NCBI GenBank assembly: GCA_965222605.1
Contig: OZ244960.1
Span: 640,001 to 704,000, forward strand
Length of the DNA: 64,000 bases
Source of the DNA: Candidatus Latescibacterota bacterium
GTDB taxonomy: Bacteria > Latescibacterota > UBA2968
Reading direction: 5' to 3'
Part shown: one piece after another, positions 10,558-53,063 of the stretch
Layout: every line of letters begins with the position of its first letter
Position numbering within the stretch: position 1 is the stretch's first letter
Position numbers and translations under genes: made by a program
The notes under the pieces: model-generated
The model's database searches: none
What the model was told of the DNA's origin: nothing
What the model saw: only the letters and a program-made list of their open reading frames with translations

Positions 10558-12534
10558 TTACCAATGATGCACCAGATGCCCTTGCCCAAAGAAAAACAAC
10601 ACATCGACGAGAAAAATCAATCCAATGCCCAGAACATAACCGAGCATCAGCCCCATAAACAAAGGCAGAGATTGGCGATAAAGTCCGATACCGCCAATTT
10701 TTAACAAAACGGACTTGACCATCCACGCCACAAAAACCGTAAACACTTGCCGCTGCAAAATACCCGTTGTAAACACCGTCAACCCAATGGGACTCAACGG
10801 CCACCACAAAAAACGATAGCGCAGAAAACTACACACAGACGCGATACTCGCACCAATACCAAAAAACATCAGCCTATCCAGACTGATGCCAAAGGGATTT
10901 TGCAATTTTTTCACCACATTGCTAAAAATCACCACATTCCCTGAATTGAACGTATAAACATTAAAATTATACGCCCCATACATATAGCCCAAATAGAGCG
11001 TGAACACCGCCGAAATAACCAGCGACAATACAAGGGCACACATCGTTGTCCAGAATAATGACCGGGTCTTGAGCTTGAGCCTTGCGCCCATCTGCGCGAT
11101 ATGTGCCAGCGTAGAAGCACCAAAAGTATTGCCCAGGCCAAATGTCGAATAAGACAGCGCCAAAGATGCGGCACTATTGGTATCCATCTGCCGAATACCA
11201 ATCGTATAAAACGCAAAACTCTGCGGCGTAATGGGCATCCGCGCATAAGCCAAACCCGACTCGGCCACAAACCGCGTCACCCCCACCGTCATCAAAATCA
11301 GCGCAAAAAGAAAAACGCCGGACACGAGCGCAGACATGCCCGAGTGCCACAACCAGAAAAAGAGAAATGCAGACCCCACAATAATACCCCATACAGCCGC
11401 CCGATAAGACAACAGTTCATCCGAATCATCCACGGCATCATCGCCGCGCATCGCCTTGCGCCACACATCCCGCAAATGCGCGCGCGCCATCCACACACTC
11501 AACGCCGTAAATGCAAAAAAAGCCCCCATCGCCTGCCAGCCCAATGCAGCACCGCCGCGAGACCCCCAGATATCCGACGCGCCAATAGAATATCCCAAAC
11601 GGTCAAAAACACCGGTTTGCACAATACCCAGCGCGTAAAAAAACCATAGACTGAACAACACATCGAGATTGGTAAAAAAGGCGAAGCCCAGCACAAAAAA
11701 ATTCAATTTGATCGTAACACTCGGAAACCCGCGCCCAAGTGGCAAAGCCCATCTATCCATCAACGGAATAGATGGAAATGTGTGCCAAAAATAGCCCACG
11801 ATATTCCACACCATCACAACCACGGGAATTGTCAATCCAACCCAAAACAGCCGGGAATGCAGAAGCCTGTATTTTCCAACCTCAACCTCTTCCAACATCG
11901 TCAACGGCACTTCCGCCAGGGGAAAAGGCAGGCGTTCTCGATCCACCCACTGCCGCCGCAACACGGCCATCAGCGCCACGCTCACCAGCGCCAGTGCAAT
12001 GAGAAAAACACCCCACCACACAAGCGGCGTCATCCACGCATCCCAGGGAATATCAACGCCAGGGGGTTTGCCCTCAAAAAAATACGTCATCTGCTTTGCC
12101 TGATTGGGCGGCGCGGCCCACTTTGGCAATCCATCCAACAAATAATCGCCCCACTGATTCTCGGGCGATGCATAATAATAAGGCGCGGCAATCCCCCCAA
12201 TGAACAAACCCATAAAATTCGCCGCCGGCACAGCCCCTGCAATCCACCCCATCGAAAAGACCACTACCATTTCGCCCTGCGACAGCGCCCATCGCGGCGT
12301 TACCCGCGCAAGCAGAACATTTAACGGCCACGCTATTACCGTAAAAACCACCATAGTCGCCATGGGCAAATGGGCAAAAACCATACGCGACGAATGCACG
12401 ATATAGGCCGAATAAGCGGGCAAAAAATTCACCAAAAACGTCACACCAATCCCGACCCAAAAGGCACGTGCAGTTACACTCAGGTGCTTGCTCTCCGGGT
12501 ACAAATCCCGATCCATCGCTTTCAACTCAGCCAT
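10558..12534 (-). CDS. DUF6785/DUF6784-type polytopic membrane protein (putative transporter), copy A
   Basis: YYYASPENQW, LRRQWVDRERLPFPL, RFVAESG, RYRFLWWPLSPIG, PLFMGLMLG; paralog of 51078-53063. Confidence 0.75.
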   Translation of the reverse strand: MAELKAMDRDLYPESKHLSVTARAFWVGIGVTFLVNFLPAYSAYIVHSSRMVFAHLPMATMVVFTVIAWPLNVLLARVTPRWALSQGEMVVVFSMGWIAGAVPAANFMGLFIGGIAAPYYYASPENQWGDYLLDGLPKWAAPPNQAKQMTYFFEGKPPGVDIPWDAWMTPLVWWGVFLIALALVSVALMAVLRRQWVDRERLPFPLAEVPLTMLEEVEVGKYRLLHSRLFWVGLTIPVVVMVWNIVGYFWHTFPSIPLMDRWALPLGRGFPSVTIKLNFFVLGFAFFTNLDVLFSLWFFYALGIVQTGVFDRLGYSIGASDIWGSRGGAALGWQAMGAFFAFTALSVWMARAHLRDVWRKAMRGDDAVDDSDELLSYRAAVWGIIVGSAFLFFWLWHSGMSALVSGVFLFALILMTVGVTRFVAESGLAYARMPITPQSFAFYTIGIRQMDTNSAASLALSYSTFGLGNTFGASTLAHIAQMGARLKLKTRSLFWTTMCALVLSLVISAVFTLYLGYMYGAYNFNVYTFNSGNVVIFSNVVKKLQNPFGISLDRLMFFGIGASIASVCSFLRYRFLWWPLSPIGLTVFTTGILQRQVFTVFVAWMVKSVLLKIGGIGLYRQSLPLFMGLMLGYVLGIGLIFLVDVLFFFGQGHLVHHW

Positions 12535-12663
12535 CGCAATCTCTCAAAAACTTAGAAGTGCCCACTCGCAGAATTTCCCGCGCAATGTACCTCAAAAAGA
12601 AAGTGTGTGCAAGGAATCCATCCCCTGCACACACCTGGATTAGCGATCAATCACAGACAGCTA

Positions 12664-13635
12664 TTAGAACGCCCCACTCACAGCAACGCGCAGCGGTGCA
12701 TCGAAATACACACCGCCATCGCTATACGACACATCCACGCGGATATCGCGTTCGCCAAAAGCGTACTTCAGACCAACGCCCAGACTGTAATCCTCCACGT
12801 CGTAGTTGACCTTATACCCACCGCGCAATGCGAGCGTATTGGCAATCCATAGCTCACCGCCAAAATTCCACCGCTGACCGTAATCAGTTGCCATAATGGT
12901 CTCACCCGCAAGCGTCAAATACGTCGGGTCGCCCTGCTCGCCATAGATTTCACCTGCCAGCCCAAAATTGAAATTGATCGGCGGTGAAAACTGCTCGGTT
13001 TCCACAGTAATACCGGAACCCACATTGCGCGCTGCGGCGGCGATTCGCAAACTGCGATAGCCCGTATATGCCGAAATACCCAGGTCAAACTGAAATGTAC
13101 TCGTCGTTTTGAGCACCAGATCTTCCTGAACCCACCGCGCTTGCGCCCCCCAGGACACTTTATCGGTCATCTGACGCGCAAACATAAACCCAATGGCCGT
13201 ATCGCCGCCCTGAATCATGCGCCCGGTGCCTGTGGCCTGAAAAATCGTCGTTTCTTCCACTTCTTCGGGCGTGAAGCTCACAATTGAAACGCCAAACGTA
13301 TTGCCGCCCCATTTGTAGGCCAATGTCCCCGAATACAATCCCGAATTGACCAGCCAGCGCGTGTAGGACAGCGCGTACTCGCCGCCTGAAACAAATCCCA
13401 ATGCGCCGGGATTGTAAAAAAACGCATCAATACCGCCGTTCATCGCAACAAAGGCTTCGCCCATAGCCACGGCCCGGGGCGACGCGCCGATTTTGAGAAA
13501 TGCCAGCGACGACTGGCCCTTCACCGGCAAAATCGTACTGTATTCGCCAAAATCCGACTGTGCAAAGGCCGGCCCCATCATCAGCCCGACACCTAGCAGA
13601 AGTGCCAGGGCCGTTGTCAACATTCGTTTGTTCAT
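12664..13635 (-). CDS. PorV/PorQ-family (UPF0164-like) outer-membrane barrel, copy A
   Basis: Signal peptide; FLKIGASPRAVAMGEAFVA, FYNPGAL, LALRGGY; C-terminal Phe. Confidence 0.85.
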   Translation of the reverse strand: MNKRMLTTALALLLGVGLMMGPAFAQSDFGEYSTILPVKGQSSLAFLKIGASPRAVAMGEAFVAMNGGIDAFFYNPGALGFVSGGEYALSYTRWLVNSGLYSGTLAYKWGGNTFGVSIVSFTPEEVEETTIFQATGTGRMIQGGDTAIGFMFARQMTDKVSWGAQARWVQEDLVLKTTSTFQFDLGISAYTGYRSLRIAAAARNVGSGITVETEQFSPPINFNFGLAGEIYGEQGDPTYLTLAGETIMATDYGQRWNFGGELWIANTLALRGGYKVNYDVEDYSLGVGLKYAFGERDIRVDVSYSDGGVYFDAPLRVAVSGAF

Positions 13636-13645
13636 GTCACGCTCC

Positions 13646-16021
13646 TTATCTCAGAATGTAAAACGTCCCCATCACCTTTTGCCCCATACTTTCGGGTGTC
13701 AGTGATTCTACGACGTAAAAGTAGATGCCGCTGGCCACATCCGGCGCAGTCTCGTTGCGTTCAATTTGGAACCACGATGCCTCACCTGCGTTGGGGTCGT
13801 CGTGCAGGATTTCACCCACGATTTCGCCGGCCACATTGTAGATCAGCACGCGGCTTTTGGGGGGCAATCCCAGGAAGCGGATCTTTTTTGAACTCTGGTA
13901 ATTATAACCCGATTCCGACAAACTGAATGGATTGGGCACCACGCGCACGCGCTTTTCCGGCCAGGACGGCGCCAGACCCGGCTGAAACGGGCTGAGGTCC
14001 AGGTTCACGCGCTGCTCGGGGGCAGAATATCCACCTTCGAGTCCAGCCTGTAAATGACTCTGCACTTCTGCGGGCAAATCGCCAATGCTCGACATGCCAT
14101 TGCTCCACGAATCGCGCGGTTTGGCAAAAGCCCGCACATTGTAAAAGTATCGGAACCCGGCAACCGCCGTATTATCGCGCCACACGTATTGGCCGCCCGA
14201 ATAGTCCCAGGTAGATCCGGAGGTACCTGCAGTGACTGTACCGATGTGCTCCCATGGCCCAAATTCCTGATAGGCAGATCGGAACACGCGATATCCCACC
14301 ACATCGGCATCGCCAAAATCGGGATGCACCGACGATTCGGCGGCATCGTTCCATGTCAACGTAATCTCTGCATCCTGATTGACCCCCGGCGCGAACTTCA
14401 CATCGGGTGGATAATCGGGCAGATCGTACATATTGTCGTACGCGAATTGTGCGGCATTCAAATGCGCCACAAGAGCGGCTTCTCCCTTGCTCAACCGCGC
14501 CAATCGTTCTTCTTCGGGCAGTGGAATGTCTTTCAAACAAAATGTCTGTATATCCACTGCATACGCCGACTGGCCTTCGCGGGATATCGCCTGCGCGCCT
14601 GTCCCGGCGACATAAGCCACCACGATCTTGGCCTTCTCGCCCACAGCCAGATTATACGGCCCAAAAGTGAGTGCATTGGCCATAGCGTTGACAGTGGATG
14701 GGTTATCATCGGTTGTTCCTGAAAACGTTTCGTAAATACCCTGCTCAGAATCGCTCTGCAAATTCGGCAAATCCGTGCTCAAACCCCAGAAATCGCGCGT
14801 TTCCCACCATTTTGACGTCCTGGGTTGATCGCCTTGCGGATTGACGTATTTGCCCTGGTCGCTGGCATTGAATACATGCGACGGCCCGCTATCGCGATAG
14901 GCCAATGGAGCAACGCTCACATATTGCGGCGATCTCATTTGCCCGTCAAACACGCCACCCGGCAGTCTTTTCGCATTGCCGTGTACGCTTTCGATATAAA
15001 CGGGTTGCCCGGTGTCTTCTTCCGAGCGCTGGATACTGTCGCCATCCCACTGATAGTTCATCTTCAAATCGACATATTCAGCAGGTCCGTCGTAATTCGG
15101 CGCACCCGTATAGCGATACTCATCGTCTTGCGGCTGATACGATCCGGGCATACCAGATCCAAGACCGTTCCAATTGCCCTCGCCCGACATGCTCACCGTA
15201 AAGCCCTGAACAAATGAGAAATACGCCCCCGTTAGATTATGTCCAGCACCGCCATTCACATCGGCAACACCATCGCCATCAGAGTCACCCGTGTTCTCAA
15301 ATTCCACTTCTAAAATGAAGAAATCGTCAAAGCCCTGATAACTCCATGCCATAGCCTTGCGCGTAATCGTAACACCGTGTTTGGTCGTCCACCTGCTAAA
15401 AACGATATCTTCCGCGCGGTCGTCCTTATCGGCGTCCATGTACTGGCCCCACCGATGATTGAGGACTTCATAGGGCACGCCCGTTCTCGGCGCATCGGTT
15501 TGCAATGCAGCACCGGGATACCAGTTGGGCATAATTGCTCCCGTCCCCAATCCATGGGGTGGCACTTCGACCTGGTATCCCCAGTTGGCTTCGGGACTAT
15601 TGGCAATATCGTAATACATCGGTGAGATATCCGCCGAAGGCGTCCACGGTCCCGAATACGACACCCCGTATTCGCCACCGACATTGGTCAACACCCATAT
15701 ACCTTCTCCTCCCGACAAATTTTGCGCCTCATTTTTTTGCTCGGCCCAGCTAAAACCGTTCTTTTTGCCGAAATACTCAATGTAGTCTGCACCGGCCATG
15801 TTGAGCATAAGGCCATTGCCCATGCCCGGATACGTCAAGCGGGGCGCGCCGCGAGAACTTCGGTCGTCCCAGACGCCGCCCTGAGTCCCCTCATTGCGGA
15901 ACCCGGTCCAGAGTTGCCCGCGCGTGAGTTGTCGCATATTCTGCGTGTCCAGGGAATAGACCTCAAACGCCCACCCCACAACCACTATCATCAGGACAGC
16001 AGCGAGAAATTTCCTGTTCAT
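13646..16021 (-). CDS. Secreted protein with FN3-like region and T9SS-CTD/FlgD-Ig-like C-terminal domain, copy A
   Basis: Signal peptide MNRKFLAA; C-terminus VRVVPNPF..IRFLGLP..IYNVAGEIV..W..ASGIYFYVVES..GTFYILR; paralog of 46388-48697. Confidence 0.75.
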   Translation of the reverse strand: MNRKFLAAVLMIVVVGWAFEVYSLDTQNMRQLTRGQLWTGFRNEGTQGGVWDDRSSRGAPRLTYPGMGNGLMLNMAGADYIEYFGKKNGFSWAEQKNEAQNLSGGEGIWVLTNVGGEYGVSYSGPWTPSADISPMYYDIANSPEANWGYQVEVPPHGLGTGAIMPNWYPGAALQTDAPRTGVPYEVLNHRWGQYMDADKDDRAEDIVFSRWTTKHGVTITRKAMAWSYQGFDDFFILEVEFENTGDSDGDGVADVNGGAGHNLTGAYFSFVQGFTVSMSGEGNWNGLGSGMPGSYQPQDDEYRYTGAPNYDGPAEYVDLKMNYQWDGDSIQRSEEDTGQPVYIESVHGNAKRLPGGVFDGQMRSPQYVSVAPLAYRDSGPSHVFNASDQGKYVNPQGDQPRTSKWWETRDFWGLSTDLPNLQSDSEQGIYETFSGTTDDNPSTVNAMANALTFGPYNLAVGEKAKIVVAYVAGTGAQAISREGQSAYAVDIQTFCLKDIPLPEEERLARLSKGEAALVAHLNAAQFAYDNMYDLPDYPPDVKFAPGVNQDAEITLTWNDAAESSVHPDFGDADVVGYRVFRSAYQEFGPWEHIGTVTAGTSGSTWDYSGGQYVWRDNTAVAGFRYFYNVRAFAKPRDSWSNGMSSIGDLPAEVQSHLQAGLEGGYSAPEQRVNLDLSPFQPGLAPSWPEKRVRVVPNPFSLSESGYNYQSSKKIRFLGLPPKSRVLIYNVAGEIVGEILHDDPNAGEASWFQIERNETAPDVASGIYFYVVESLTPESMGQKVMGTFYILR

Positions 16022-16039
16022 ATCACTATCCTCCAATTT

Positions 16040-19000
16040 TCAAAACTGAATTTCCAGACCGATTTCCACTTTGCGCGGATTGTACCTGTAGCGCGTGGAT
16101 TCTCTTGGGTCGCCATAAAGCAAATACCCGGTATCATCTGGCGGGGGTAGCCGCAGCCCGTACTGCACATAAGTAAAATCCGAATTTCGGATCTCGGAGC
16201 TCTTTTCATTGAACAAATTGCTCACTTCCAAAAATAGCGTGGGACGCAATTTGCCAATAGCTCGAAAATCTTTGGCCGCGTACAGATCCGTCTTCATCGT
16301 CGATGCTCCTGTGCGAAATTCGCGCGGGCCAATCGGGGGGACATACTCAAACGGCTGGCCGCTGAAAATGCGGTAGATCATGCTCACGCGCAGACCCCCA
16401 AATGGATTGATCGCGCCCATTTTGGGACCATAAGCCATCGGCGTGGCATAATACAACTGAAGCGACAACTGATTCCTGCGCTGCCCGCTGATAGGCTCTG
16501 CCGAAAAGACATTTCCGTTTGCGGCTGTCCAGATACCGTTGTCATTGGTTTTGATGGGTGGCTGCCAGACCCCTGCACCAGGGCCTTGTGACCCGGCCTG
16601 CCCGATCCACGCCACGATATTTGCCTCGGCTCTGGCACTGATGTCGGCCACTTGCTCAGACGTGAGCGGCACGGGTCTTTCCGAACCGTCGGATTGCACT
16701 TCCCAATCAGTCCAGTAGTGCCCAGCCGCAATAAAATCGGCATTGGGAAGCACATACCAGTTTGACGAATGTTTTCCGTAGTGAACGCCGCCCGGATCGC
16801 GCACCCATTCGGCATTGTAGGACAAATGGAACTGGAAATTGTTGCTAAACGTCTTTTTCAGCGACAGTTCGATCCCGCGCGCTGTTTGCCATCGGGTATT
16901 GCGTATTGCGTTGACCTGTGCGGACTGGCCTTTGAGCGGATCTACCCAATAGGAAATATTGTTTCTGGCGTACAACCCCTCGTCGCGCCGATAGTGTGCC
17001 GTAATACTGGCCGTATAATCAGCTACAAAGTTCCAGTCCACCCCCATTTCCATACTCGTCGTGCGCTGGGGGTTCATGCCTTCGGACGGCTGCCGCGCCG
17101 TGGTATGCACTTCCATAGCATTCCACTTTTCGGTCTCGTCAATTACGCCATTGCCGTTGAGGTCATTGTCTGGCGCCTCGCTTGAAAACTGTCTGCGATG
17201 GGTTTCGAGGAGCACGGGAAAGACGTTCGCTCGACCAATGAAATAGTGCGCTGCCAACTGGTCTGTAATCGGATGCGACAGGCCCAAGCGCGGACTCAGC
17301 GCCGTCATCGTTGGCGTCGAACTATCGAGATGGTCCATTTCATACCGCGCCCGCGTAAACGTGCTGTACATCGGCGATTTGCCCAGCGCCTCTCCCATTG
17401 AGCCGTTGCGCCCAAAATTGTAATAATCCCAGCGTAAGCCCAGATTGGCAATCAGGCCGCCGTACTCGATCTTGTCCTGCACATACAGGTTCAGCGTCCA
17501 GGGTTTCACATTTTCGCCCAGGTTAAACCCATCGGCCACAAATTCGAGAAAGCGGCTCTTGGTATTGTCAAAATCTTCTCGCGTGCGGTGATAGGCCCGC
17601 TGCGTGAGCACCAACCCCGTCTGAATCAAGTGCGACCGATTGACCTGACTCACGAAATCGTATTTGATGCCGTATTTCGTATCTTCCTCTTCGGTATATT
17701 CGCGCACCAGCGTGGGCAAATTGAAAAAACCCGCCTTATCTTTGCGCACTGCTTCGGTGGCAGCCGGCACATCGAACGCATCGCGATCGTATTTGTTGTA
17801 GAAAAATTTCAGATCGTAATACGTGTTTTTGCCCAATGTATGTGTCAACGTCAACACCTCGAGCTGCCGCGACAATGTGTAAGTACCCGAAGCTGAAAAA
17901 TCCTCGAGGAAGAAAATATTTTGCGTATTGTTGCGCGTTGATCCCTGAAACTGATCCGACCTTTGATACATGCCCAGTGCCTTAATCTTGATATTTGCGC
18001 TGGGGCGATACGTCAACGTGGCCTGCATGCGCGGCGGATTATCCGATATCTGCTCAACTGCGGGAAACCTGGCCGGGTCGCGGGAATAACTCACGCTGGC
18101 AAAATACGAAAAATCGCGTGTGAGCGGCCCGCCCAGCGTGCCTTCTAAGCGGTGCCCACGCTTGTCCGTATATTCGACGCGTTCGTGCGCCATACGCTCG
18201 ACATCGTCAGACGTTCCCAGCGTGCGATCAGGTCCTGGATCCATATATGTTTCGTTCACCCAATCGGGATTGTTCCACTGCACATTGTCTTCAAATCCAG
18301 GGCTTTCATGCACATCTCTGCCCCAGTGTTTTTTGCCCGCTGGTGTGAACTTATACTCCACCCGACCAGAGAAATTGCCCCGGCCTTCTTTTGTCACCAG
18401 GCTCACAATGCCCGCACCCGCATTGCCAAATTCCGCATTCATACCACCGGTTAGCACACTCAGTTCCTGAATGGCCGTAGTGTTCACGCCTGTGAGCAGA
18501 CTCCGATCGACCTCAATCCCATCGATATAATAGCCCACCTGCGTCCCCGCTTGCACCTGCGTTGTGCTTCCGCGAATGCGATTGCTACCATCCAGTGCCA
18601 TACCCGGTTGCAATGCGATCAATTGCGATGTCGATCTCACCTGCGGCACGGCCTGAATATCTGCCGAAGAAACCACGTATTTGCTCGTGGTTTTGTCTGG
18701 CTCAACAGGTGGCCGCTCCGCAATAACAATCAGTTCGGCCAATTCGAGACTGGATTCTTTCAGTGCAAAATTCACTGTGGATGTATAATCCACAATCACC
18801 TGCACTTCTTCTTTCTTTTCTGTGCCATAGCCCACTATCGTCGCCGTCAGGGTGTACATTCCGGGATCCACGGCCAGAATTAAATAGCGACCCTCTGTAT
18901 CGGTGGTGGCTCCTTTGCGGGTACCTTCAAGCACCACATTCGCGCCCGGCAAAGACTCACCCGTGGCGGCATCTGTGATGACACCCGTGATCTTTCCCGC

Positions 19001-19066
19001 TGTTGCTGCCATTGCCGACGTATCCATCAGCAAGAACAAAATAAATCCCAATATTAACCGCTTCAT
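16040..19066 (-). CDS. TonB-dependent receptor with N-terminal carboxypeptidase-regulatory-like domain, copy A
   Basis: GKITGVITDAATGESLPGANV, plug TGGMNAEFGNA, LYVQDK, LSPRLGLSHP, PRKVEIGLEIQF. Confidence 0.92.
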   Translation of the reverse strand: MKRLILGFILFLLMDTSAMAATAGKITGVITDAATGESLPGANVVLEGTRKGATTDTEGRYLILAVDPGMYTLTATIVGYGTEKKEEVQVIVDYTSTVNFALKESSLELAELIVIAERPPVEPDKTTSKYVVSSADIQAVPQVRSTSQLIALQPGMALDGSNRIRGSTTQVQAGTQVGYYIDGIEVDRSLLTGVNTTAIQELSVLTGGMNAEFGNAGAGIVSLVTKEGRGNFSGRVEYKFTPAGKKHWGRDVHESPGFEDNVQWNNPDWVNETYMDPGPDRTLGTSDDVERMAHERVEYTDKRGHRLEGTLGGPLTRDFSYFASVSYSRDPARFPAVEQISDNPPRMQATLTYRPSANIKIKALGMYQRSDQFQGSTRNNTQNIFFLEDFSASGTYTLSRQLEVLTLTHTLGKNTYYDLKFFYNKYDRDAFDVPAATEAVRKDKAGFFNLPTLVREYTEEEDTKYGIKYDFVSQVNRSHLIQTGLVLTQRAYHRTREDFDNTKSRFLEFVADGFNLGENVKPWTLNLYVQDKIEYGGLIANLGLRWDYYNFGRNGSMGEALGKSPMYSTFTRARYEMDHLDSSTPTMTALSPRLGLSHPITDQLAAHYFIGRANVFPVLLETHRRQFSSEAPDNDLNGNGVIDETEKWNAMEVHTTARQPSEGMNPQRTTSMEMGVDWNFVADYTASITAHYRRDEGLYARNNISYWVDPLKGQSAQVNAIRNTRWQTARGIELSLKKTFSNNFQFHLSYNAEWVRDPGGVHYGKHSSNWYVLPNADFIAAGHYWTDWEVQSDGSERPVPLTSEQVADISARAEANIVAWIGQAGSQGPGAGVWQPPIKTNDNGIWTAANGNVFSAEPISGQRRNQLSLQLYYATPMAYGPKMGAINPFGGLRVSMIYRIFSGQPFEYVPPIGPREFRTGASTMKTDLYAAKDFRAIGKLRPTLFLEVSNLFNEKSSEIRNSDFTYVQYGLRLPPPDDTGYLLYGDPRESTRYRYNPRKVEIGLEIQF

Positions 19067-19080
19067 AGACCTCCTCCTAT

Positions 19081-19165
19081 GTGAAGTGTGAAGTGTGATG
19101 AAGCACCCGCCTTCTGGGTGGTGTGGGGTGGCCTTCTCACTTCTTACTTCTCACTTCTTACTTCA
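19081..19165. repeat. Inverted array of heptamer repeats (GTGAAGT / ACTTCTY) in the intergenic spacer
   Basis: gtgaagt-gtgaagt-gtga ... cttctca-cttctta-cttctca-cttctta-cttc; can form a long imperfect hairpin. Confidence 0.65.
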
Positions 19166-19858: not shown

Positions 19859-20002
19859 AGATATGTCTCCTTTTAACAGTCAACGGTTGTATAACATTCT
19901 ACATCTCATGTCATATCTCCTCCTTTCCCAATAGCACAACGTATTGTCGCCATTGAAGCAATGTACAAGTTCAATCGTCAGTTTTTTCCTCCTTTCTCAA
20001 TC

Positions 20003-20031
20003 TTGACAAAACCATTTAAAATTGTTAAAGT
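20003..20031 (+). promoter_or_regulatory. Sigma70-type promoter
   Basis: TTGACA-17 nt-TAAAGT. Confidence 0.65.
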
Positions 20032-20036
20032 CTCTG

Positions 20037-37260: not shown

Positions 37261-37264
37261 TGCT

Positions 37265-46100: not shown

Positions 46101-46363
46101 GGACAGGTAAAACAGAAGCCGTTCTATTTATGAACGTGTACAACTTCTTCAACCAGCGCGATCCAGCCACCGAGTATTTCTGGCGCGGTCCCTGGTTTGA
46201 CCGACATAGACAGGGTCCGCAGTCCGAACTCTGGTATCTCTATGGCATGGACATGCCCAAACCCACGGACAAAAATTATATCAACTACGGCGACACCAAA
46301 GAATACCACCGCTGGGCCGGACGGCCCCGAGAGATCAGCATAGGTCTCCAGCTCGGATTCTAA
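43142..46363 (+). CDS. TonB-dependent receptor, copy B
   Basis: GKISGII..LPGANV, TGGMEAEYGNA, YLQDKME, SPRLGVSHP, PREISIGLQLGF. Confidence 0.92.
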   Translation: MKRIVMIFILLGFAHPLYAGTTGKISGIIKDDQGSPLPGANVIVEDTRLGAVADADGSYFIINILPGRYTLTASLIGYTNQTQSDVSVKTDFTTPLNFQLKETTVELAELTVVAERPPVEKDKTTSKYIMGGDAIDRLSTVANTSELMSLQAGVSLDNNEPAIRGSYQGNRGNSETLVYVDGVVMDAGTARGDVQFVGVNSAAVQEITVITGGMEAEYGNATSGAINIITREGGKNFHGKGRLAYIPPGKKHWGGNVYDSPIHKGRMKWGDAAWENETYADPGPDRQMGTGDDITRMAHERTDYTGIHGYEVDGSISGPLLGNASFFVTAQHEGQASHFPSPTKRGIFHQAVSTSPQTARWIESPANIKGTYKLAWDVQSNIKVKVGGVYSRHEAYQVGEGESWVQGVKRTVGRELQGIDVFLPADEAGAGIANVKHDLAYISLTHTLSNKTFYEARLSYYRDATDTTNVPGVTSQFGGGITEPLRKDQDGVFTIGPRRVSIWINDHRARLNFKLDYSSQINKNHFIKTGIDLTRHTYWWNQINWPQAGKSRYQLAGVPYEMGEPINPIQSAFYLQDKMEFEGIIVNLGVRYDRHDHNGDFYSPLANNAWAGAPMTNSWSRQRKFMPRTSVSTKSAWSPRLGVSHPITANAIIRFSYGIFHQMPGFWHLYSYEWRGVAPPEDFNNNGQIDDTEWLNKNNQPATTGNPHLDYKRSTNFEVGTDWNFYQDYVLSFTTYQQSVDGQVRFGNARWRDPSRKSQRGRNTPLGYVFTDNRGFEMSLRKDFSQNFSFQVAYNHQWQSGGNAGINRIIYFPTSQFIASDLYFIQHTKDTNGDGVVNASDDGSEAKVSLTPQQIQEIGAEADRYIQTIREGTNPDWNPLTDSEIQEVENLPGVFFFTRNTTSDRSAGRGGRAETAGFGDRRGTMKIAFTYETPMHYGPALGGFRLNVINTLKTGRRISIPHPTQGNVERFGPMETKTNLSLEKRIRTGKTEAVLFMNVYNFFNQRDPATEYFWRGPWFDRHRQGPQSELWYLYGMDMPKPTDKNYINYGDTKEYHRWAGRPREISIGLQLGF

Positions 46364-46387: not shown

Positions 46388-48697
46388 ATGTATCCATTGA
46401 AATACATCGGATGGATGGGCGTTCTATCTGTGCTGGTACTTACATCCGAAATCTGTGCCCAGCAACCCGAACTTCAACGCCACCTCACCCGGGGCAAGCT
46501 CTGGGCCACTTTTCGCAACACCGGCACCCAGGGCCTGCGCGACGACAGCCGCCTGGGCGCAGATGCCGGATTGATGTATCCCGGCTGGGGCATTGGCGAG
46601 CGCGACTTTACAGAATACTGGATCATTGGACAGGACAGCGACCACCGCTATCACACCAGCCAGGGCGAGGGTTTTTGGGTTTTCACCAAAGAAGGCGGGT
46701 CATACAATGTATCTACCTCCAATCCGCGCTACAATACCGACGACATCTTTGAAATGATCTACGATGCCGCTTCGGGTCCAGAGCGCGATTTGGGTGTTGA
46801 AACCCGATCAGCTCTCACGGGCAATACCACGGCCAATTACTGGCCCGGATCACCTGCACTGGTGGCCGACGAACCCATCGAAATCCACAACTACGATTAC
46901 GGACGCTATATTCCCAACGACAACGAGGCCGAAGAAATCATCATCTCCAAATGGACGACAGAACGCGGCCTCACCATTACCCGCAAAGCCAGAGCGTGGA
47001 GCTATCCGGACTACGACGACTTCTTCATTCTGGAAGTCATCATCGAAAACACCGGCGATAACAACGGAGACGGCACACCCGATGAAGGGCTACCCGTTGA
47101 TCACAAGGATGTCTATTTCGCCTTTGTGAACAACCTGGCCCCGTCGTGGGCCGGACACCGATGGCAGAACCAAACCGCACCGTGGGCGTATTCCGACCCG
47201 ATCATCCTGGACGACTGGTACAAATACAGTGAAGCGTCCAATTTCGACGGCCTGGCCGATCTCCGCGGCAAGAAAATCTCTTATGTCTATGACAGCGATC
47301 TGCTCTCTTCCGCTGGAGACGACACGGGTCAGCCTTTCGATAAGAACAACGCCCAGTCAGCCTATATCAACCGGGGCCAGCTCAACAACGGCGAACTCAC
47401 GGCTTTTCAGTACATCGGCCTGGCGCCCCTGGATTATGACCCTACAGACGGATTCTCCAACGACACCGAGACCTACGTGGCCCCCAAAACAATGAACCAG
47501 CCCGCCTATGTCAACTGGTGGGAGATCTACGGGCGCTTCGATTGGGACACGCCAGATATTACCAATCTGAATAGCGACCGGAATCTCTACAATGAATTTA
47601 TTGGTTCAGGTAGAGTACCAGCCGATCAACCCAACCCCGACCATCTCAGCCGCGTAACCTTCGCACACACCTACGGCCCTTACGATCTGGCCCCCGGTGA
47701 AAAAGCCAAAGTCGTAGTCGCCTGGGTAGCCGGATCGGGTGCCGAATTTGCCGGCCCCGGCGGCAGTCCCATGGATGTTTATGAATGGGCGCGTCAGGGC
47801 AATCAAAATCAAGTCGCCGATGGAGAACGCGCACTGGCACAGCATTTGGAACGGGCACAATTTGCCTATGACAACGGTTATGACCTGCCCGACGCGCCTC
47901 CCGATGTTGCCATATTCGTAGATAGCGATGAAAATGGGAACAACGCCATCACATGGTCTGACCGAGTCGAAAAATCGCCCGACCCGGATTATACGGGCGA
48001 CGAAGCCCTGGATGTGCAGGGCTACCGGGTTTATCGCACTCAAAACAACCACCTGGGTCCCTGGGAACTTGTGGCCGATATCCCAAAGGGAGCTACCCCG
48101 ACCAACACGGAGTATGCCCCCGGCACACCCTGGACTTCCCCCACGATTTCGTACTCCGATGGGGGAACCTACACCTATCGGGACGTAGAATCAGTGCCCG
48201 GTTTCAGGTACTGGTATTCGGTGCACACGTACGATTCCGGGCACAGCGACTGGAACGGCACAGGCCGATCCATTCCATCCCTGGAATCTGGGCACAGCGC
48301 ACCCGAACAGCGCATGAATGTTTCCAGAAGCCCCATTGTGATTGCAACCGCTGAAAAAGACGCGCTGGCCGAACAGGTGCGCGTAGTCCCCAATCCCTTT
48401 CGGGACGATCCGGGAGACGTCGATCACCGGTATCCACCTGCCAGCAACAATATTCGCTTTGTCAATATTCCCCGAAAAGCCAAAATCTCCATCTTTTCTA
48501 TCTCCGGAGATCTAATCGCCGTCATCAACCACCCGCAACGCACCACCGATCCCGACCGAGGCGAAGCCACCTGGGGCCAGCGCACGCGCACATTTTCCGG
48601 GCGCGTCGCTGCCGGACGCTACTACTATGTGGTAGAATCTCTGGTTGCTGGAGAAACGGGCAAAAAACAGACCGGGATGTTTATGATCATCAAATAG
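46388..48697 (+). CDS. Secreted protein with FN3-like region and T9SS-CTD-like C-terminus, copy B
   Basis: Signal peptide; VRVVPNPF..IRFVNIP..IFSISGDLI..W..AAGRYYYVVES..GMFMIIK. Confidence 0.75.
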   Translation: MYPLKYIGWMGVLSVLVLTSEICAQQPELQRHLTRGKLWATFRNTGTQGLRDDSRLGADAGLMYPGWGIGERDFTEYWIIGQDSDHRYHTSQGEGFWVFTKEGGSYNVSTSNPRYNTDDIFEMIYDAASGPERDLGVETRSALTGNTTANYWPGSPALVADEPIEIHNYDYGRYIPNDNEAEEIIISKWTTERGLTITRKARAWSYPDYDDFFILEVIIENTGDNNGDGTPDEGLPVDHKDVYFAFVNNLAPSWAGHRWQNQTAPWAYSDPIILDDWYKYSEASNFDGLADLRGKKISYVYDSDLLSSAGDDTGQPFDKNNAQSAYINRGQLNNGELTAFQYIGLAPLDYDPTDGFSNDTETYVAPKTMNQPAYVNWWEIYGRFDWDTPDITNLNSDRNLYNEFIGSGRVPADQPNPDHLSRVTFAHTYGPYDLAPGEKAKVVVAWVAGSGAEFAGPGGSPMDVYEWARQGNQNQVADGERALAQHLERAQFAYDNGYDLPDAPPDVAIFVDSDENGNNAITWSDRVEKSPDPDYTGDEALDVQGYRVYRTQNNHLGPWELVADIPKGATPTNTEYAPGTPWTSPTISYSDGGTYTYRDVESVPGFRYWYSVHTYDSGHSDWNGTGRSIPSLESGHSAPEQRMNVSRSPIVIATAEKDALAEQVRVVPNPFRDDPGDVDHRYPPASNNIRFVNIPRKAKISIFSISGDLIAVINHPQRTTDPDRGEATWGQRTRTFSGRVAAGRYYYVVESLVAGETGKKQTGMFMIIK

Positions 48698-48713: not shown

Positions 48714-49655
48714 GTGAAACGCTTGCAAATAACACTCATCCTGGTCTTCACTGCCTTTGTCCTATCGGCAACAGGCGCAGAAGCCGGACTAAAAAAACTC
48801 GGCAATGCCGGGTTCACCTTCCTCAAAGTCTCTCAAAGCGCACGCGCCGTTGCTATGGGCGATGCGTACACCGCAGTAGGCACAGGTGTGGATGCCATGT
48901 TCTGGAATCCAGCGGGCATCACGCACATTGACCGCGCCGCTTTTAGCCTGGGCTACAACAACTGGATGGTCAACTCCCAATTTTATTCCGGTGCTTTTGC
49001 CTACAACCTGGGCACACAGGCCATAGGCATCACGGTCTTGTCTTTCACACCCGATGAATTTGAAGAAACCACCATTTTCCAGCCCAATGGCACGGGCAAT
49101 ATCATTAAAGACAGCGACTTTGCCATTGGCCTAACCTATGCCATCAAATTCACCGACAGATTGTCATTTGGCGCTCAGGGCAGGTATATTCGGGAAACGC
49201 TCTACACCGATATCAACAGCGGTCTGGACATCTCGATAGGTACGCTCTTTTACACCGGATTCCGCTCTTTGCGTTTGGCCATGACGCTGAAAAATTTCGG
49301 ACAGGATATCGTCATCATCGACGATACGGCCTTCCGTCCCCTCATCTACAGCATCGCGGCTTCCATGGAACTCTACGGCAATCTGGGCGATCCGGTTTCT
49401 CTCACCGTAGCTGCGGAAAATGCCTTCTTTGTCGATTTTGAAGGCCGCATTCACACGGGCGCCGAACTCTGGCTGCACAATATTCTCGCACTGCGCGGTG
49501 GCTGGAAATTCAACAACGATACCGAGAGTTTTGCCCTTGGCTTTGGCCTCAAATACGCGCTCAATGAGCGTCCCTTCACCCTGGACTTTGCATATAGCGA
49601 TATGGGCGAGCTATTGGACCCCACCTATCGGATAACCATTGGCGGTTCTTTCTAA
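48714..49655 (+). CDS. PorV/PorQ-family outer-membrane barrel, copy B
   Basis: FLKVSQSARAVAMGDAY, FWNPAGI, LALRGG, C-terminal Phe. Confidence 0.85.
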   Translation: MKRLQITLILVFTAFVLSATGAEAGLKKLGNAGFTFLKVSQSARAVAMGDAYTAVGTGVDAMFWNPAGITHIDRAAFSLGYNNWMVNSQFYSGAFAYNLGTQAIGITVLSFTPDEFEETTIFQPNGTGNIIKDSDFAIGLTYAIKFTDRLSFGAQGRYIRETLYTDINSGLDISIGTLFYTGFRSLRLAMTLKNFGQDIVIIDDTAFRPLIYSIAASMELYGNLGDPVSLTVAAENAFFVDFEGRIHTGAELWLHNILALRGGWKFNNDTESFALGFGLKYALNERPFTLDFAYSDMGELLDPTYRITIGGSF

Positions 49656-49677
49656 AACACCTCTTATGGAATCTGGT

Positions 49678-51054
49678 ATGAAACGGATCATTTTGCTACT
49701 GTGCCTCACGCGGGGGTTCATCTCGCCAGTCACGGGAGAAGATATCCCCGTTATGGGGCAGGGTGCCATCCCATTTTGGGTCGATAGTGCCGGGTTTTAT
49801 ACGCCAGACAGCCTGAACTATGGCGAACTGTATCTCCAATGCCTTTGCCAGCACCTCACATTTAGAAAATCAAATGACCGCCAGCGGGCTATCTACCGCG
49901 TAGAAGCCACCTTTTTTTCCGAGCGCGATACCATTCCCTTCAAATGGGAAAAACAGATCATCGCAGACAAGAAAACAGACCTGCGCGATCAAATGATTAC
50001 AGAGGCATTGAGCTTTAAAATAGCCCCCGGCACCTACGGGGTTCACATGCGCCTGAAAGATTTGCAGGCCAACGCCGAAGGCAACTGTGAACTTGTCTTT
50101 ACAATGCCCGAATTTGGCAACGCTGCCTTGACCATGAGCGACATCCAGTTTGCCCATCGGATTGACGCCGCGAACACACAGACCAGCAGCAGGCTGGTCA
50201 AAAATGGGTTCAAAATCGTCCCCAATACGCGCAGGTCAATAGAGACGACCTTAAACATCTACTTTGAACTGTACGGCCTTACCACAGGCGAGGGACGCGC
50301 TGGAACTTTCGACCTCGCCTATACCCTCCTGGATACCGCGGGACAGCGGATCAGAAACTTTCCCTCGCGCTATCGCAAACCCGGCACAACCGCAATTAAA
50401 ACCGAATCTCTCGACCTCAAAGGTGTACCGCCAGGGCAGTATGTACTGGAAATTACTGCCCGCGACAATGGCACGCGAAAAATCACCACGCGCCAAAGGG
50501 TCTTTTCAATTGCAGACGTACAAAAACCCGCACTGGCAACAGACCCCGCCTCCTTAAAACGCTATTACAACCAAATCCGCTACATCGCCACAAAAGCTGA
50601 ACGTGAAGCTTATACCTCCTTAAGCACCAATGAGAAAGTGAAATTTATTCTCTCTTTCTGGAAAAAACGCGACCCAACGCCTCTAACGCCCGAAAATGAG
50701 TTTGCCACCGAACATTTCAGGCGCATGCGCTATGCAGACGAACGCTTCTCTGCACGCCCCGGGCAAAAGGGATCGGATACCGACCAGGGACGCATCCACA
50801 TCAAATATGGCCTGCCAACAGATATTGAGCGCAGTCCGTTTAGTGCCACCGGCAAAGCTTTTGAAATTTGGACCTACGAACACCTCAATTACTACGAGTT
50901 TGTATTTTTGGATCGCCTCGGAGACGGCGTTTATGAAATGATCCACGCCACTATGCCAGGAGAACGCTACAACCCCAACTGGCGAGACGAACAAGCCATC
51001 GGTGACCAAACTGACCCCACATCACTGCCATCTGAGGCATTTTCTCCGCCATAA
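49678..51054 (+). CDS. GWxTD-domain protein
   Basis: FWKKRDPTP.TPENE, RMRYADERF, GSDTDQGRIHIKYGLP, EIWTY; signal peptide. Confidence 0.85.
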   Translation: MKRIILLLCLTRGFISPVTGEDIPVMGQGAIPFWVDSAGFYTPDSLNYGELYLQCLCQHLTFRKSNDRQRAIYRVEATFFSERDTIPFKWEKQIIADKKTDLRDQMITEALSFKIAPGTYGVHMRLKDLQANAEGNCELVFTMPEFGNAALTMSDIQFAHRIDAANTQTSSRLVKNGFKIVPNTRRSIETTLNIYFELYGLTTGEGRAGTFDLAYTLLDTAGQRIRNFPSRYRKPGTTAIKTESLDLKGVPPGQYVLEITARDNGTRKITTRQRVFSIADVQKPALATDPASLKRYYNQIRYIATKAEREAYTSLSTNEKVKFILSFWKKRDPTPLTPENEFATEHFRRMRYADERFSARPGQKGSDTDQGRIHIKYGLPTDIERSPFSATGKAFEIWTYEHLNYYEFVFLDRLGDGVYEMIHATMPGERYNPNWRDEQAIGDQTDPTSLPSEAFSPP

Positions 51055-51077
51055 AACCGCGAGAAGCCACAAAACCT

Positions 51078-53063
51078 ATGGCAAAAACGCCATGCCCACA
51101 ATATAGGTCAGCATCCTTGCCCGAACCCAAAACAAGTGGTGTAAGCCTTCGCGCTATTGTATTGGGGCTCGCGCTCGTTGTCCTGATCAATCTCTGGATG
51201 CCCTATTCAGAGTACATCGTGCGGGCATCGCGCATGAACCTCAGCCACTTTCCGGTCGCAGTATTCATCCTCTTTCTCCTCATACGCTACCTGCTCACCC
51301 CTCTACTATCAGCCTGGAACCCCACCCTCCTTTTAACCCCTTCTGAACAGTTCGTCATCATTGCAATGGGACTCGCAGGCGGTGTGGTGCCCGGATCAGG
51401 TGTCCTCGGTTTTCTCTTTGGCACCATTGCTACCCCGTATTATTTTGCCACGCCAGAAAACCGCTGGGCGGACTTCTTCCACGCCCACCTTCCCACCTAT
51501 TTGGTACCGCCCAATACCAACGGCGCAATGCGCGATTTTTACGAAGGTGCGCTACCCGGCACTCCAATCCCCTGGTCTATATGGGGCGCGCCCCTTTTTT
51601 GGTGGCTTGTTTTCATCGCTGCCATTGTCTTTGTTTCGGCCTGTATTGCAGTCATCTTGCGCCGCCAGTGGTCTGAAAATGAGCGTTTGGCATTTCCCCT
51701 ATTAAGCCCGACCCTGCATATTGTTTCTCCAGAACAAACACGCGATAATCCCTTGCAGTACAGAGGTCTCTACTGGGCGGGATTCGCTCTCTCCTCTGGC
51801 ATTCTCTCCTGGAATATTCTCCATTTCTTCTGGCCTATCGTGCCCGATATTAAACTGACACTTCCCTTTTTTTATTTTGCCAAAGGTTATCCCCCCATCT
51901 TTCCCCGGTTCAATATTTACGTCATGGGATTTGCCTATTTTGCCAACCTCGATGTGCTGTTCAGCATGTGGTTCTTCCATCTCCTTTTTTACCAAATCCC
52001 AGGTGGCCTCTTAAATCGCATTGGATTTGACATGCCCGGCCGCGGTGACCCCTATGGTGCGCTTCACTTTTCCGGCGCGGGCTGGTTGTGTTTTGGCGCT
52101 CTGTGTTTTTTCGTTTTTTGGGGATTGTACATCTCTCGCCATCACCTCAAAGCGGTCCTTCTCAAAGCCATCAACCCGCAACACCCCATTGACGACACTC
52201 GGGAACTCCTATCTTACCGCACCGCTGTTTCGGGGCTACTTATTGGAACGCTTTTTATTTTTATCTGGTTATATCAATCCGGCATGGGGCCCTCAGCGAT
52301 CGCCTTTTACATTGCGGCTACCTTTGTCATTTACATGGGCGTGGCGCGTATCGTCGCTCAAACCGGCATTCTTTTCGTGCAAGCCCCAATCAGCGCACAG
52401 GTTTTCACCATTTATTCTCTCGGTACACACGCCCTTTCGATGCCCACCATGACATCGCTCGCCCTCTCCTACGCGCTCACCAACTATATTCGCGGTCTGT
52501 TTATGCCCGCATTAATCCATATCGCCAAACTATCCGAATGGATCAAAGCTGACCACCGCAAACTTTTAGGCGCGGTCTTTTTGGGATTAGTCGTCGGCTG
52601 TCTGACGTTTATTTTATATGTCATTCCCCTGGGTTATGAAAGGGGGGCTTTCAATTTTAACGACATTCCGCTCAAATCGGGTATCAATCGGATCTATCCG
52701 GTGATCCTCAGCAAAATTGTCAATCCCTTTGGTCCCGACTGGCAAAGGCTGGGATTTTTTGGCGGCGGCGCAACATTGATGGGATTGCTCACATTCTTAC
52801 AATATCGCTTCCCCTGGTGGCCCCTGCATCCCATTGGCCTGACTGTTTGCAGCACCAATGTCGCCCGCAGCAATCAGGTTTCTATTTTTATAATTTGGGC
52901 ATTCAAATTGTTCGTACTGCATTTTGGCGGTGTTTCTGCTTATCGTCGTTTCCAGCCCTTCTTCATTGGCCTACTTACCGGTTATGGCCTGGGAGTCGCG
53001 CTGTCTTTTATTGTCGATGCCCTGTGGTTTTCCGGTCAGGGACATTACGTACACAGGTGGTAA
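51078..53063 (+). CDS. DUF6785/DUF6784-type polytopic membrane protein, copy B
   Basis: YYFATPENRW, LRRQWSENERLAFPL, RIVAQTG, YRFPWWPLHPIG, PFFIGLLTG. Confidence 0.75.
   Translation: MAKTPCPQYRSASLPEPKTSGVSLRAIVLGLALVVLINLWMPYSEYIVRASRMNLSHFPVAVFILFLLIRYLLTPLLSAWNPTLLLTPSEQFVIIAMGLAGGVVPGSGVLGFLFGTIATPYYFATPENRWADFFHAHLPTYLVPPNTNGAMRDFYEGALPGTPIPWSIWGAPLFWWLVFIAAIVFVSACIAVILRRQWSENERLAFPLLSPTLHIVSPEQTRDNPLQYRGLYWAGFALSSGILSWNILHFFWPIVPDIKLTLPFFYFAKGYPPIFPRFNIYVMGFAYFANLDVLFSMWFFHLLFYQIPGGLLNRIGFDMPGRGDPYGALHFSGAGWLCFGALCFFVFWGLYISRHHLKAVLLKAINPQHPIDDTRELLSYRTAVSGLLIGTLFIFIWLYQSGMGPSAIAFYIAATFVIYMGVARIVAQTGILFVQAPISAQVFTIYSLGTHALSMPTMTSLALSYALTNYIRGLFMPALIHIAKLSEWIKADHRKLLGAVFLGLVVGCLTFILYVIPLGYERGAFNFNDIPLKSGINRIYPVILSKIVNPFGPDWQRLGFFGGGATLMGLLTFLQYRFPWWPLHPIGLTVCSTNVARSNQVSIFIIWAFKLFVLHFGGVSAYRRFQPFFIGLLTGYGLGVALSFIVDALWFSGQGHYVHRW

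Follow-up and report, generated by a model that had tools for sequence, protein, structure and literature searches.

Gene clusters and the conserved four-gene unit

Two gene clusters of the same make-up are present in a 64,000-nucleotide stretch of the genome of a Candidatus Latescibacterota bacterium (assembly GCA_965222605.1, contig OZ244960.1, positions 640,001 to 704,000), which is referred to at its full length as the window. The genome consists of a single contig (C1) of 6.34 Mb, with 98.68% completeness and 5.41% contamination. Each cluster encodes a small outer-membrane beta-barrel (F1), a TonB-dependent receptor (TBDR; F2), a partner protein of about 780 residues (F3), a barrel of the PorV/PorQ family (F4), and a membrane protein with DUF6785 and DUF6784 domains (F5). 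The cluster proteins were assigned to families using Pfam and NCBIfam profiles, and the identities between the two clusters were obtained by BLASTP.

Cluster A is located on the minus strand. Its first gene encodes F1a (19166 to 19858, 230 residues, Pfam OMP_b-brl E 1.6e-6), and this gene is followed by those for the receptor F2a (16040 to 19066, 1008 residues, CarbopepD_reg_2 E 3.6e-19 and Plug E 6.4e-7), the secreted partner F3a (13646 to 16036, 796 residues), whose match to CHU_C as a whole protein was under the cut-off (E 0.0043), and the barrel F4a (12664 to 13635, 323 residues, NF033709 E 4.6e-42). A terminator-like hairpin with a 16-pair stem followed by a T-run (12601 to 12636, minus strand) lies between the F4a stop codon and the start codon of F5a (10558 to 12534, 658 residues, Pfam E 1.1e-112 and 6.8e-18, 377.5 and 65.1 bits). 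Cluster B is located on the plus strand and consists of the genes for F1b (42426 to 43127, 233 residues, OMP_b-brl E 3e-11), F2b (43142 to 46363, 1073 residues, CarbopepD_reg_2 E 6.5e-20, Plug E 2.4e-7, and TonB_dep_Rec_b-barrel), F3b (46388 to 48697, 769 residues), a paralog of F3a with no Pfam match for the whole protein, F4b (48714 to 49655, 313 residues, NF033709 E 5.4e-48 and Pfam PorV E 9e-8), and F5b (51078 to 53063, 661 residues, Pfam E 1.3e-106 and 5.9e-20, 357.5 and 71.8 bits). In this cluster a gene for a GWxTD-domain protein (49639 to 51054, 471 residues, TIGR04514 E 1.5e-28) is inserted between F4b and F5b.

The original prediction, which had been made from the letters of the window, described two paralogous operons of five genes. 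The open reading frame (ORF) list, Pfam, and NCBIfam agree with its placement of both clusters, and the three motif pairs that it quoted are all visible in the alignment of F3a with F3b. All five gene pairs are diverged paralogs with 33-42% identity: F1a and F1b share 33% (E 6e-41), F2a and F2b 33% (E 0), F3a and F3b 36% over the full length (E 2e-134), F4a and F4b 42% (E 8e-86), and F5a and F5b 38% (E 3e-160). Sec signal peptides without a lipobox were found on F1 to F4, and F5 is polytopic.

Two was an understatement of the number of such loci. Comparison of the window proteins with all ORFs of the genome by phmmer yielded 22 copies of F1, 25 of F3, 56 of F5, and 45 of the GWxTD protein, along with approximately 35 F2-type receptors and approximately 35 F4 barrels. 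F2 is directly upstream of F3 in 25 of 25 loci, and F4 is directly downstream of F3 in 24 of them and about 1 kb away in the 25th; F1 is upstream in 22 of the 25 cassettes, and F5 is found within 3 kb in only 12. Three further cassettes contain a different partner family (C1:1715865-1723112 with a partner of 1045 residues, 2123632-2130385 with one of 753 residues, and the region at 3517678 with one of 704 residues), which brings the total in this genome to about 28. Clusters A and B are not sister copies, and the best paralogs of each are located elsewhere in the genome. The recurrence of the F2-F3-F4 order is far beyond chance.

The co-divergence of the families was measured as the Mantel correlation of pairwise distances among cassettes with 2000 permutations. 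Every pair among F1 to F4 gave an r of 0.82-0.91 (0.89-0.91 among F2, F3, and F4, and 0.82-0.85 for F1 with each of these), values that were reached by none of the 2000 permutations, whereas F5 gave only 0.19-0.36 with F1 to F4, which was reached by 33 to 242 of 2000. Our data therefore indicate that F1 to F4 duplicate and diverge together, a correlation that does not in itself show physical contact.

A hairpin followed by a T-run (free energy, dG, of at most -12 kcal/mol, at most 160 nucleotides after F4) was found in 15 of 24 cassettes and in 13 of 144 control windows placed inside genes; at a dG of at most -15, the numbers were 14 of 24 and 4 of 144. The cluster A hairpin (12636 to 12601) is the top-ranked terminator-like site of its region and is situated inside the 129-nucleotide gap between F4 and F5. 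No terminator-like site was detected in the short intergenic gaps of cluster B, and the F4b transcript may read through to the GWxTD gene and F5b. The conserved unit is thus composed of four outer-membrane genes encoding the small barrel, the CarboxypepD_reg TBDR, the partner of about 780 residues, and the PorV/PorQ-family barrel; the five-gene operon is not supported, because F5 co-diverges only weakly with the others and a hairpin separates F4a from F5a.

Between 37% and 59% of the words sampled from cluster A were present in each of six metatranscriptomic runs from three studies, one of which is labeled as a sponge metagenome, and RNA contigs from four of the runs were placed on positions 6900-20200 of the window. 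In run X15 one contig of 8473 nucleotides covers 12571-19879 at about 98% identity, and in run X16, from the same study, one contig of 7637 nucleotides covers 12668-19879, also at about 98%; both spans correspond exactly to F4 through F1 of cluster A. Such contigs favor one transcription unit; they are no proof of a single transcript, and DNA carry-over may have contributed to them. Run X17, from the second study, covers 12853-14905 and 15938-19717, while run X19, from the third, provided many short pieces. F5a has almost no contig cover in these four runs (pieces at 10120-10346 and 11922-12163), from which non-expression cannot be concluded. A joint in one X17 contig that skips 2198 nucleotides from 13953 to 16152, with 20 letters on its short side, was taken as an assembly artefact or as derived from a related cassette.

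Loci in other genomes were collected with a degenerate pattern, each species being represented by a single genome. This search found 216 relatives, of which 78 loci were retained, and their gene order was scored with hidden Markov models (HMMs) built from the paralogs of the window genome. The synteny was upheld: F2, F3, and F4 are contiguous and on the same strand in 76 of the 78 loci, many of which, as orthologs within one genus or members of closely related genomes, do not count as independent. The two misses are L097, which is at a contig end, and L144. F1 through F4 are present in 58 of the 78 loci, F5 is within 10 kb in 59, and the order F4-GWxTD-F5 was seen in 11. The order is kept in KSB1 loci (L123 and L140) and in Calditrichota loci (L136 and L147). 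Two to three tandem F3 genes per receptor, with one PorV-family barrel, are found in L136, from a metagenome-assembled genome (MAG) of Caldithrix sp., and in L140, from a KSB1 MAG; therefore, the 1:1:1 ratio of the window genome is not universal.

In a sample of the phylum, matches (E <= 1e-10) were obtained in 98 of 151 genomes. Four families of the phylum had matches in all of their sampled genomes (29/29, 19/19, 5/5, and 2/2), and the largest family had weak single matches only, in 37 of 64 genomes. A search of 1.84 billion cluster representatives with the F3 profile returned 5250 proteins at E <= 1e-3, 2118 at 1e-10, and 323 at 1e-30. Members of the F3 family are named only "hypothetical protein" and originate from Latescibacterota, KSB1, Marinimicrobia, Fidelibacterota, and MAGs labeled as Gemmatimonadota.

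The receptor, the partner protein, and the predicted barrel anchor

The SusC/RagA model TIGR04056 matched F2a with 91 bits and F2b with 70.9 bits, below its cut-off of 368.25, and the match was confined to the N-terminal 210-375 residues. F2 does share with SusC-type receptors an N-terminal CarboxypepD_reg-like domain followed by the plug, and the 25 aligned paralogs have in common, apart from some substitutions, the motif E-[LI]-x-V-[VI]-A-E-R-P-P-V-E. None of the 15 cluster proteins matched the SusD Pfam families, and no match to SusD-like_3 was found in the whole genome. The single SusD_RagB match genome-wide lies elsewhere (C1:3841329-3841709), contains an in-frame TAG, and is adjacent to a receptor (3842662-3845574); this ORF and its neighbor may be the remains of a susC/susD pair under decay, the genome otherwise relying on the barrel-anchored cassette. 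The cassettes are accordingly SusD-less, as had been proposed. For the small barrel, the F1 profile matched solved structures only at NspA with an E of 0.27.

The AlphaFold model of F3a (predicted local distance difference test, pLDDT, 81.8; predicted TM score, pTM, 0.87) consists of a supersandwich head (residues ~28-540) similar to galactose mutarotase, a long helix at 508-534, a fibronectin type III (Fn3) domain at ~548-640, a linker of about 55 residues, and a beta-sandwich tail at ~698-796 with beta-strands at residues 698-794. The head was recognized solely by a search independent of Foldseek, which for the whole protein retrieved only Fn3 tandems. VIA-align superposed the head on the N-domain of glucoamylase (1lf6) with a Z of 18.2 and a root-mean-square deviation (rmsd) of 3.2 A over 242 aligned residues, and on glucodextranase (1ulv) and cellobiose phosphorylase (2cqs) with a Z of 18.0 each. 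The region that matched these supersandwich N-domains, and also those of glycoside hydrolase (GH) families GH116, GH65, and related ones, comprises residues ~28-540/590. The non-catalytic domains of GH15, GH94, GH65, and GH116 enzymes together gave Z scores of 15.9-18.2, and galactose mutarotases, lyase domains, and the GH174 fucanase gave scores of 11-13.5. The F3a model contains no catalytic (alpha/alpha)6 or TIM-barrel domain. At the level of sequence, the F3 profile matched those of solved structures only at the level of chance (E 0.53).

Conservation among the 25 F3 paralogs is highest in the tail, with a mean identity of 44%, and lowest in the head, with 27-34%. The acidic residues D238, D304, D331, and D341 are invariant across the family. 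A conserved tail with a variable head fits a constant anchor that carries a diversified working end. The tail is also restricted to the cassettes: an HMM of 25 F3 tails recovered all 25 F3 genes and three additional ORFs from the genome, and 28 of these 28 are located between F2 and F4 genes. Ordinary Por_Secre_tail domains are carried by 6 different ORFs outside the cassettes.

The barrel next to F3 was correctly described as PorV-like. F4a (144.8 bits) and F4b (164.2 bits) exceed the 90-bit cut-off of NF033709, which represents the PorV/PorQ family, and both remain under the equivalog cut-offs for PorV (NF033710, cut-off 250; 49.2 and 66.8 bits) and PorQ (NF033711, cut-off 220; 54.8 and 74.1 bits). 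A profile of 22 F4 sequences matched PorV 6h3i with an E of 9.1e-19, and PorV of F. johnsoniae, represented by 6h3i and entries of the 8gl6 series, is the only solved relative of F4.

Residues 26-323 of F4a, with an alignment of 22 rows, were modeled in complex with the tail of F3a, residues 686-796, for which the alignment had 27 rows. The ipSAE score was 0.91 in three of three runs, compared to 0.00 for the best of three controls. In the calibration of the tool, 116 of 157 solved complexes and 2 of 215 mismatched pairs attained this mark, and these counts are rough here because our own alignments were used. The partner pLDDT was 81 or higher, and the runs had 90% or more of their contacts in common. 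The F3 tail is thus predicted to dock on the F4 barrel. An enrichment of invariant residues at the predicted interface (7 of 13 invariant tail columns, compared to 44 of 111 tail residues overall, by hand count) was unconvincing and was not used.

A plausible inner-membrane transporter, catabolic context, and neighboring genes

F5 exceeds the Pfam gathering cut-offs for DUF6785 (PF20581) and DUF6784 (PF20580). The model of F5a (pLDDT 88.1, pTM 0.89) resembles barley Yellow Stripe 1 (7wsr and 7wst) by Foldseek, with an E of 1.2e-7 and TM scores of 0.62-0.70, and by VIA, with which 551 of 600 residues were aligned to 7wsr with a Z of 23.7 and an rmsd of 3.9 A at 9-11% identity; the next match had a Z of 6.3. 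There was no match to the Pfam OPT family (PF03169) even at E <= 10, and no sequence match of the F5 profile in the PDB. In one Atlas cluster of DUF6785 proteins, OPT was assigned to 11% of the members, and DUF6785 homologs are found in Planctomycetes, Zixibacteria, Omnitrophica, and others. Because of the superposition on Yellow Stripe 1 over nearly its whole length, F5 is plausibly an inner-membrane secondary transporter, and it is an interchangeable neighbor of the cassette rather than one of its subunits. It has 56 full-length copies in the genome, many of them beside catabolic genes. The inner-membrane role that had been assigned to DUF6785 therefore gains a transporter fold, while its link to the cassette proves to be loose. 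Downstream of F5a, a gene of the sodium:solute symporter family (8775 to 10604, minus strand; SSF E 2e-38, TIGR00813 E 7.5e-45) belongs to the context rather than to the cassette. The GWxTD family (TIGR04514) is expanded to 45 loci, for example five in tandem at C1:244003-266741, and in cassettes its genes often immediately precede F1 or separate F4 from F5.

The window also contains genes for two sulfatases, a GH4 enzyme, a BNR protein, a beta-helix protein, GFO/IDH/MocA oxidoreductases, a xylose-isomerase-like barrel, a sulfotransferase, and five PhyH-type dioxygenases. Of the 23 other F3 cassettes, 19 had their flanks of about 6 kb analyzed, with 113 ORFs in total; the remaining four overlap other retrieved regions. 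A sulfatase, FGE-sulfatase, or arylsulfotransferase is present in 7 of the 19 flanks, and lyase-like families in 3 (L162, L164, and L175). With a strict list of glycan-linked families (sulfatase, FGE, arylsulfotransferase, lyase-like, GH-like, BNR, and carbohydrate-binding module) the count is 11 of 19; the inclusion of sugar oxidoreductases, kinases, and ROK proteins raises it to 13, which leaves six flanks without any. Because the flanks are mixed, a role in glycan use is likely and not universal.

Several other features of the surroundings were recorded. The PhyH-type Fe/2-oxoglutarate dioxygenase genes of the window (6944-7690, 25260-26147, 31898-32797, 37717-38538, and a WelO5-like one at 22110-23156) are unusually numerous and have counterparts in the flanks of 6 of the 19 other cassettes, often beside sulfatases; these enzymes may act oxidatively when glycans that are sulfated or otherwise modified are broken down. 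A redoxin (58847-59539) and a large leucine-rich-repeat protein (59536-62004) are each fused to dockerin/EF-hand modules, and a dockerin is also found on an arylsulfotransferase near another cassette (L163). Between the two window cassettes, genes for a Gp49-like (HigB-type) toxin and an HTH_37 antitoxin overlap at 36898-37720. Beyond the downstream neighbors of cluster A are genes for a type I restriction R subunit (962-3907), an AAA/BrxC-like ATPase (4479-5657), and a DDE transposase (5743-6528); transposases also flank cassettes L159, L165, L166, L167, and L171. After cluster B, two ORFs (53124-54098, 324 residues, and 53917-55518, 533 residues) gave no Pfam or NCBIfam match at E <= 10, and the former has no paralog in the genome.

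Proposed function of the cassette and comparison with known systems

Taken together, we consider it probable, with some reservation, that the four-gene cassette is the capture-and-import front end of catabolic loci resembling polysaccharide utilization loci (PULs) in Latescibacterota and neighboring phyla of the Fibrobacterota-Chlorobiota-Bacteroidota (FCB) group. F3 would be exported, and its C-terminal beta-sandwich tail would stay docked on the cognate PorV/PorQ-family barrel F4, so that its anchor at the cell surface would be a protein barrel and not a lipid. This type of attachment has precedents in type IX secretion: in PMC10202324, the C-terminal domain (CTD) of PorU is described as staying bound to PorV and that of PorZ as being retained to bind PorQ, and cognate PorV-like barrels are suggested to shield tails from cleavage. 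The supersandwich head, whose fold is typical of the domains with which glycoside hydrolases and phosphorylases bind carbohydrate, would capture or present a polymer or oligomer that the adjacent receptor F2 imports, with the small barrel F1 as a fourth co-evolving subunit. Transport across the inner membrane would be separate and interchangeable, often by a DUF6785/6784 protein of the OPT/Yellow-Stripe fold and in cluster A also by the sodium:solute symporter. In this scheme the surface tethering of F3, the binding of glycan, the joint action of F3 and F2, and the way in which F3 is exported are inferred.

A number of results weigh against this reading. The F3 tail falls under the cut-off of every CTD model that it matches. 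CHU_C (PF13585, cut-off 27), the type B sorting domain, gave 17.6-21.5 bits with the F3a tail (E 2.6e-4 for the tail alone) and 15.0 bits with the F3b tail (E 0.027), and TIGR04183 (cut-off 23) gave 15.2 bits with the F3a tail (E 0.015). The best NCBIfam match of the F3a tail, to the PorZ tail model, was under the cut-off as well (E 1.7e-4). Besides these, PF18962 (cut-off 27) gave 13.6 bits with the F3 tail, and the PorU tail model matched the F3b tail with an E of 0.14; the PorZ tail and TIGR04183 were not among the matches of the F3b tail, nor the PorU tail among those of the F3a tail. Across the family, CHU_C matched 16 of 27 F3 members at E <= 0.01, with a best E of 1.2e-5. The type IX secretion machinery of the genome is equally mixed. 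SprA/Sov is present over its cut-off (TIGR04189, 492.5 bits, or 630.3 with a neighboring match) as an ORF of 2086 residues at C1:203804-208507, while a PorU-like ORF of 1900 residues (C1:741037-745227) gave 237.4 + 72.1 bits against a cut-off of 420. No match to GldL or GldM (TIGR03513, TIGR03517, and PF12081) was detected in the genome, although 14 control genomes gave none for the first two models either and one match under the cut-off for the third, so that absence does not follow. The matches to GldK were partial, under the cut-off, and limited to the C-terminal half of the model, and they were not counted as GldK. The export route of F3 is uncertain because of these results, and the coupling to type IX secretion that had been proposed is only partly supported, SprA being the component that exceeds its cut-off. 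In addition, the complex score of 0.91 may in part reflect memory of solved PorV complexes, some of the 6h3i and 8gl6-series entries presumably holding bound substrate, and F3 could be catalytic because the supersandwich is also found in enzymes such as mutarotases and in lyase domains. Eight of the 19 flanks are without strictly glycan-linked families, and two of these flanks (L173 and L174) contain peptidases. The reservations stated above on the independence of the 78 loci and on the RNA contigs point in the same direction.

The alternatives differ mainly in what F3 does once it has been exported. According to the original prediction, F3 held by F4 is an opening and closing lid on F2 and functionally replaces SusD, and the five genes including that for DUF6785 form one operon. 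The constant adjacency of F2, F3, and F4 in the window genome and their co-divergence (r 0.89-0.91), the lack of SusD in the cassettes, the predicted tethering of F3 to a barrel, and the CarboxypepD_reg N-terminal domain that F2 has in common with SusC-type receptors would all fit such a lid. SusD is a compact helical cap, whereas F3 is rich in beta-strands, comprises several domains, and sits on a linker of about 55 residues, which makes the geometry of a lid uncertain; F5, for its part, is absent within 3 kb in 13 of 25 cassettes, co-diverges weakly (r 0.19-0.36), and is separated by a hairpin in cluster A. As a whole, this proposal appears possible and rather unlikely. A similarly tentative standing is given to the view that F3 is a barrel-tethered accessory, either a binder like SusE/F or an enzyme like SusG, that concentrates or cuts polymer next to a lidless F2. 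The head fold is common both to non-catalytic GH domains and to mutarotases, lyase domains, and the GH174 fucanase, four acidic residues (D238, D304, D331, and D341) are invariant, and the two to three tandem F3 genes per receptor in L136 and L140 fit an accessory better than a 1:1 lid; the strict 1:1:1 adjacency and co-divergence with F2 in the window genome argue against it, as does the absence of a catalytic (alpha/alpha)6 or TIM-barrel domain from the F3a model.

Least probable, and in our estimate improbable, is that F3 and F4 are an ordinary type IX cargo and its shuttle, in which case a PorU-like sortase would cut the tail, F3 would be released or attached to lipopolysaccharide, and the adjacency to a TBDR would reflect co-regulation only. 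SprA over its cut-off and the PorU-like ORF of 1900 residues are compatible with such a route, and PMC8754138 describes PorV as shuttling cargo to the attachment complex. A general shuttle, however, would have no need of 28 private copies that co-diverge with their cargo, and the tail subtype occurs only inside cassettes (28 of 28), with ordinary Por_Secre_tail domains on the 6 ORFs outside them. Moreover, the sub-threshold matches of the tails are to PorZ, the best in NCBIfam, and weakly to PorU in the case of F3b, both of which keep their tails according to PMC10202324. A more far-reaching version of the front-end reading is that F1 to F4 form one stable four-protein machine, a "barrel-anchored utilisome", in which the barrel and CTD are a permanent cognate anchor, rather than components of secretion taken over for a single step, and which is a general alternative to SusC/SusD in FCB phyla other than Bacteroidota (Latescibacterota, KSB1, Calditrichota, Marinimicrobia/Fidelibacterota, and others); we regard this as doubtful at present. 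If it is true, the anchor may work in cells without a GldLM motor, the tail-barrel pair might serve the export or assembly of the partner, and the origin of the type IX attachment complex would be linked to nutrient uptake.

Glycan uptake in the FCB group is understood almost wholly through SusC/SusD, and PUL-prediction tools seek that pair. As a result, whole phyla of abundant degraders from marine, sediment, and sponge-associated habitats appear to be without PULs. A front-end cassette with about 28 copies in one genome, members in several phyla, and representation in metatranscriptomes would give such organisms a recognizable marker of substrate-specific loci. It would also demonstrate a second receptor-partner design, in which a protein barrel takes over the anchoring function of the lipid, and would give the PorV/PorQ family and tails similar to those of type IX secretion a role outside secretion. 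The results also allow DUF6785/DUF6784, a family with a strong expansion to 56 copies in this degrader, to be interpreted as transporters of the OPT/Yellow-Stripe fold. What is new from the window is the scale in one closed genome, the F1 subunit, the evidence from co-divergence and terminators, the fold of the head, the exclusive tail subtype, the metatranscriptome contigs, and the OPT/Yellow Stripe-like fold of DUF6785/6784. A literature search that left subscription-only papers and supplementary files outside its scope found no description of a barrel-anchored cassette and no paper with the term DUF6785, and within that scope the statement that no characterized system of this make-up was known is upheld.

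In its proposed function, the cassette is nearest to the SusC/SusD (RagA/RagB) core of Bacteroidota PULs and to the "utilisome" complexes that contain this core. The two systems have in common a CarboxypepD_reg TBDR beside a surface partner, dozens of diverged copies, and adjoining genes for polymer degradation. Unlike SusC/SusD, the cassette is without SusD and its F2 is under the SusC/RagA cut-off; F3 is no lipoprotein, as it has a Sec signal without a lipobox, and is beta-rich; and the barrels F1 and F4 are additional. BtuG-BtuB and TbpB-TbpA are similar in that a surface binding protein hands its substrate to a TonB-dependent barrel, which in the cassette is a proposal, and those partners are anchored by lipid, in contrast to the beta-barrel that is predicted to bind the C-terminal domain of F3. 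In a comparable manner, F5 shares its whole-protein fold with OPT/Yellow Stripe-like transporters and differs from them in having only 9-11% identity, no sequence-profile match, and 56 copies in the genome.

In the principle of anchoring, PorZ-PorQ and PorU-PorV are the nearest systems. As in these pairs, which are covered in PMC10202324 and PMC8754138, a PorV/PorQ-family barrel is predicted to hold the retained C-terminal domain of its partner; in contrast to them, F4 is not an equivalog of PorV or PorQ, and the genome contains 28 private pairs, each beside a TBDR, and not one housekeeping pair for secretion. The type B CTD cargo of Flavobacteria with its PorP/SprF-like barrel, which is mentioned in PMC10202324, is similar in that the cargo gene adjoins a barrel gene of its own, and the best Pfam match of the F3 tail is CHU_C. 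The cassette differs from this cargo in that CHU_C is under its cut-off, F4 belongs to the PorV/PorQ family and not to PorP/SprF, and the neighbors are nutrient receptors and not gliding adhesins.

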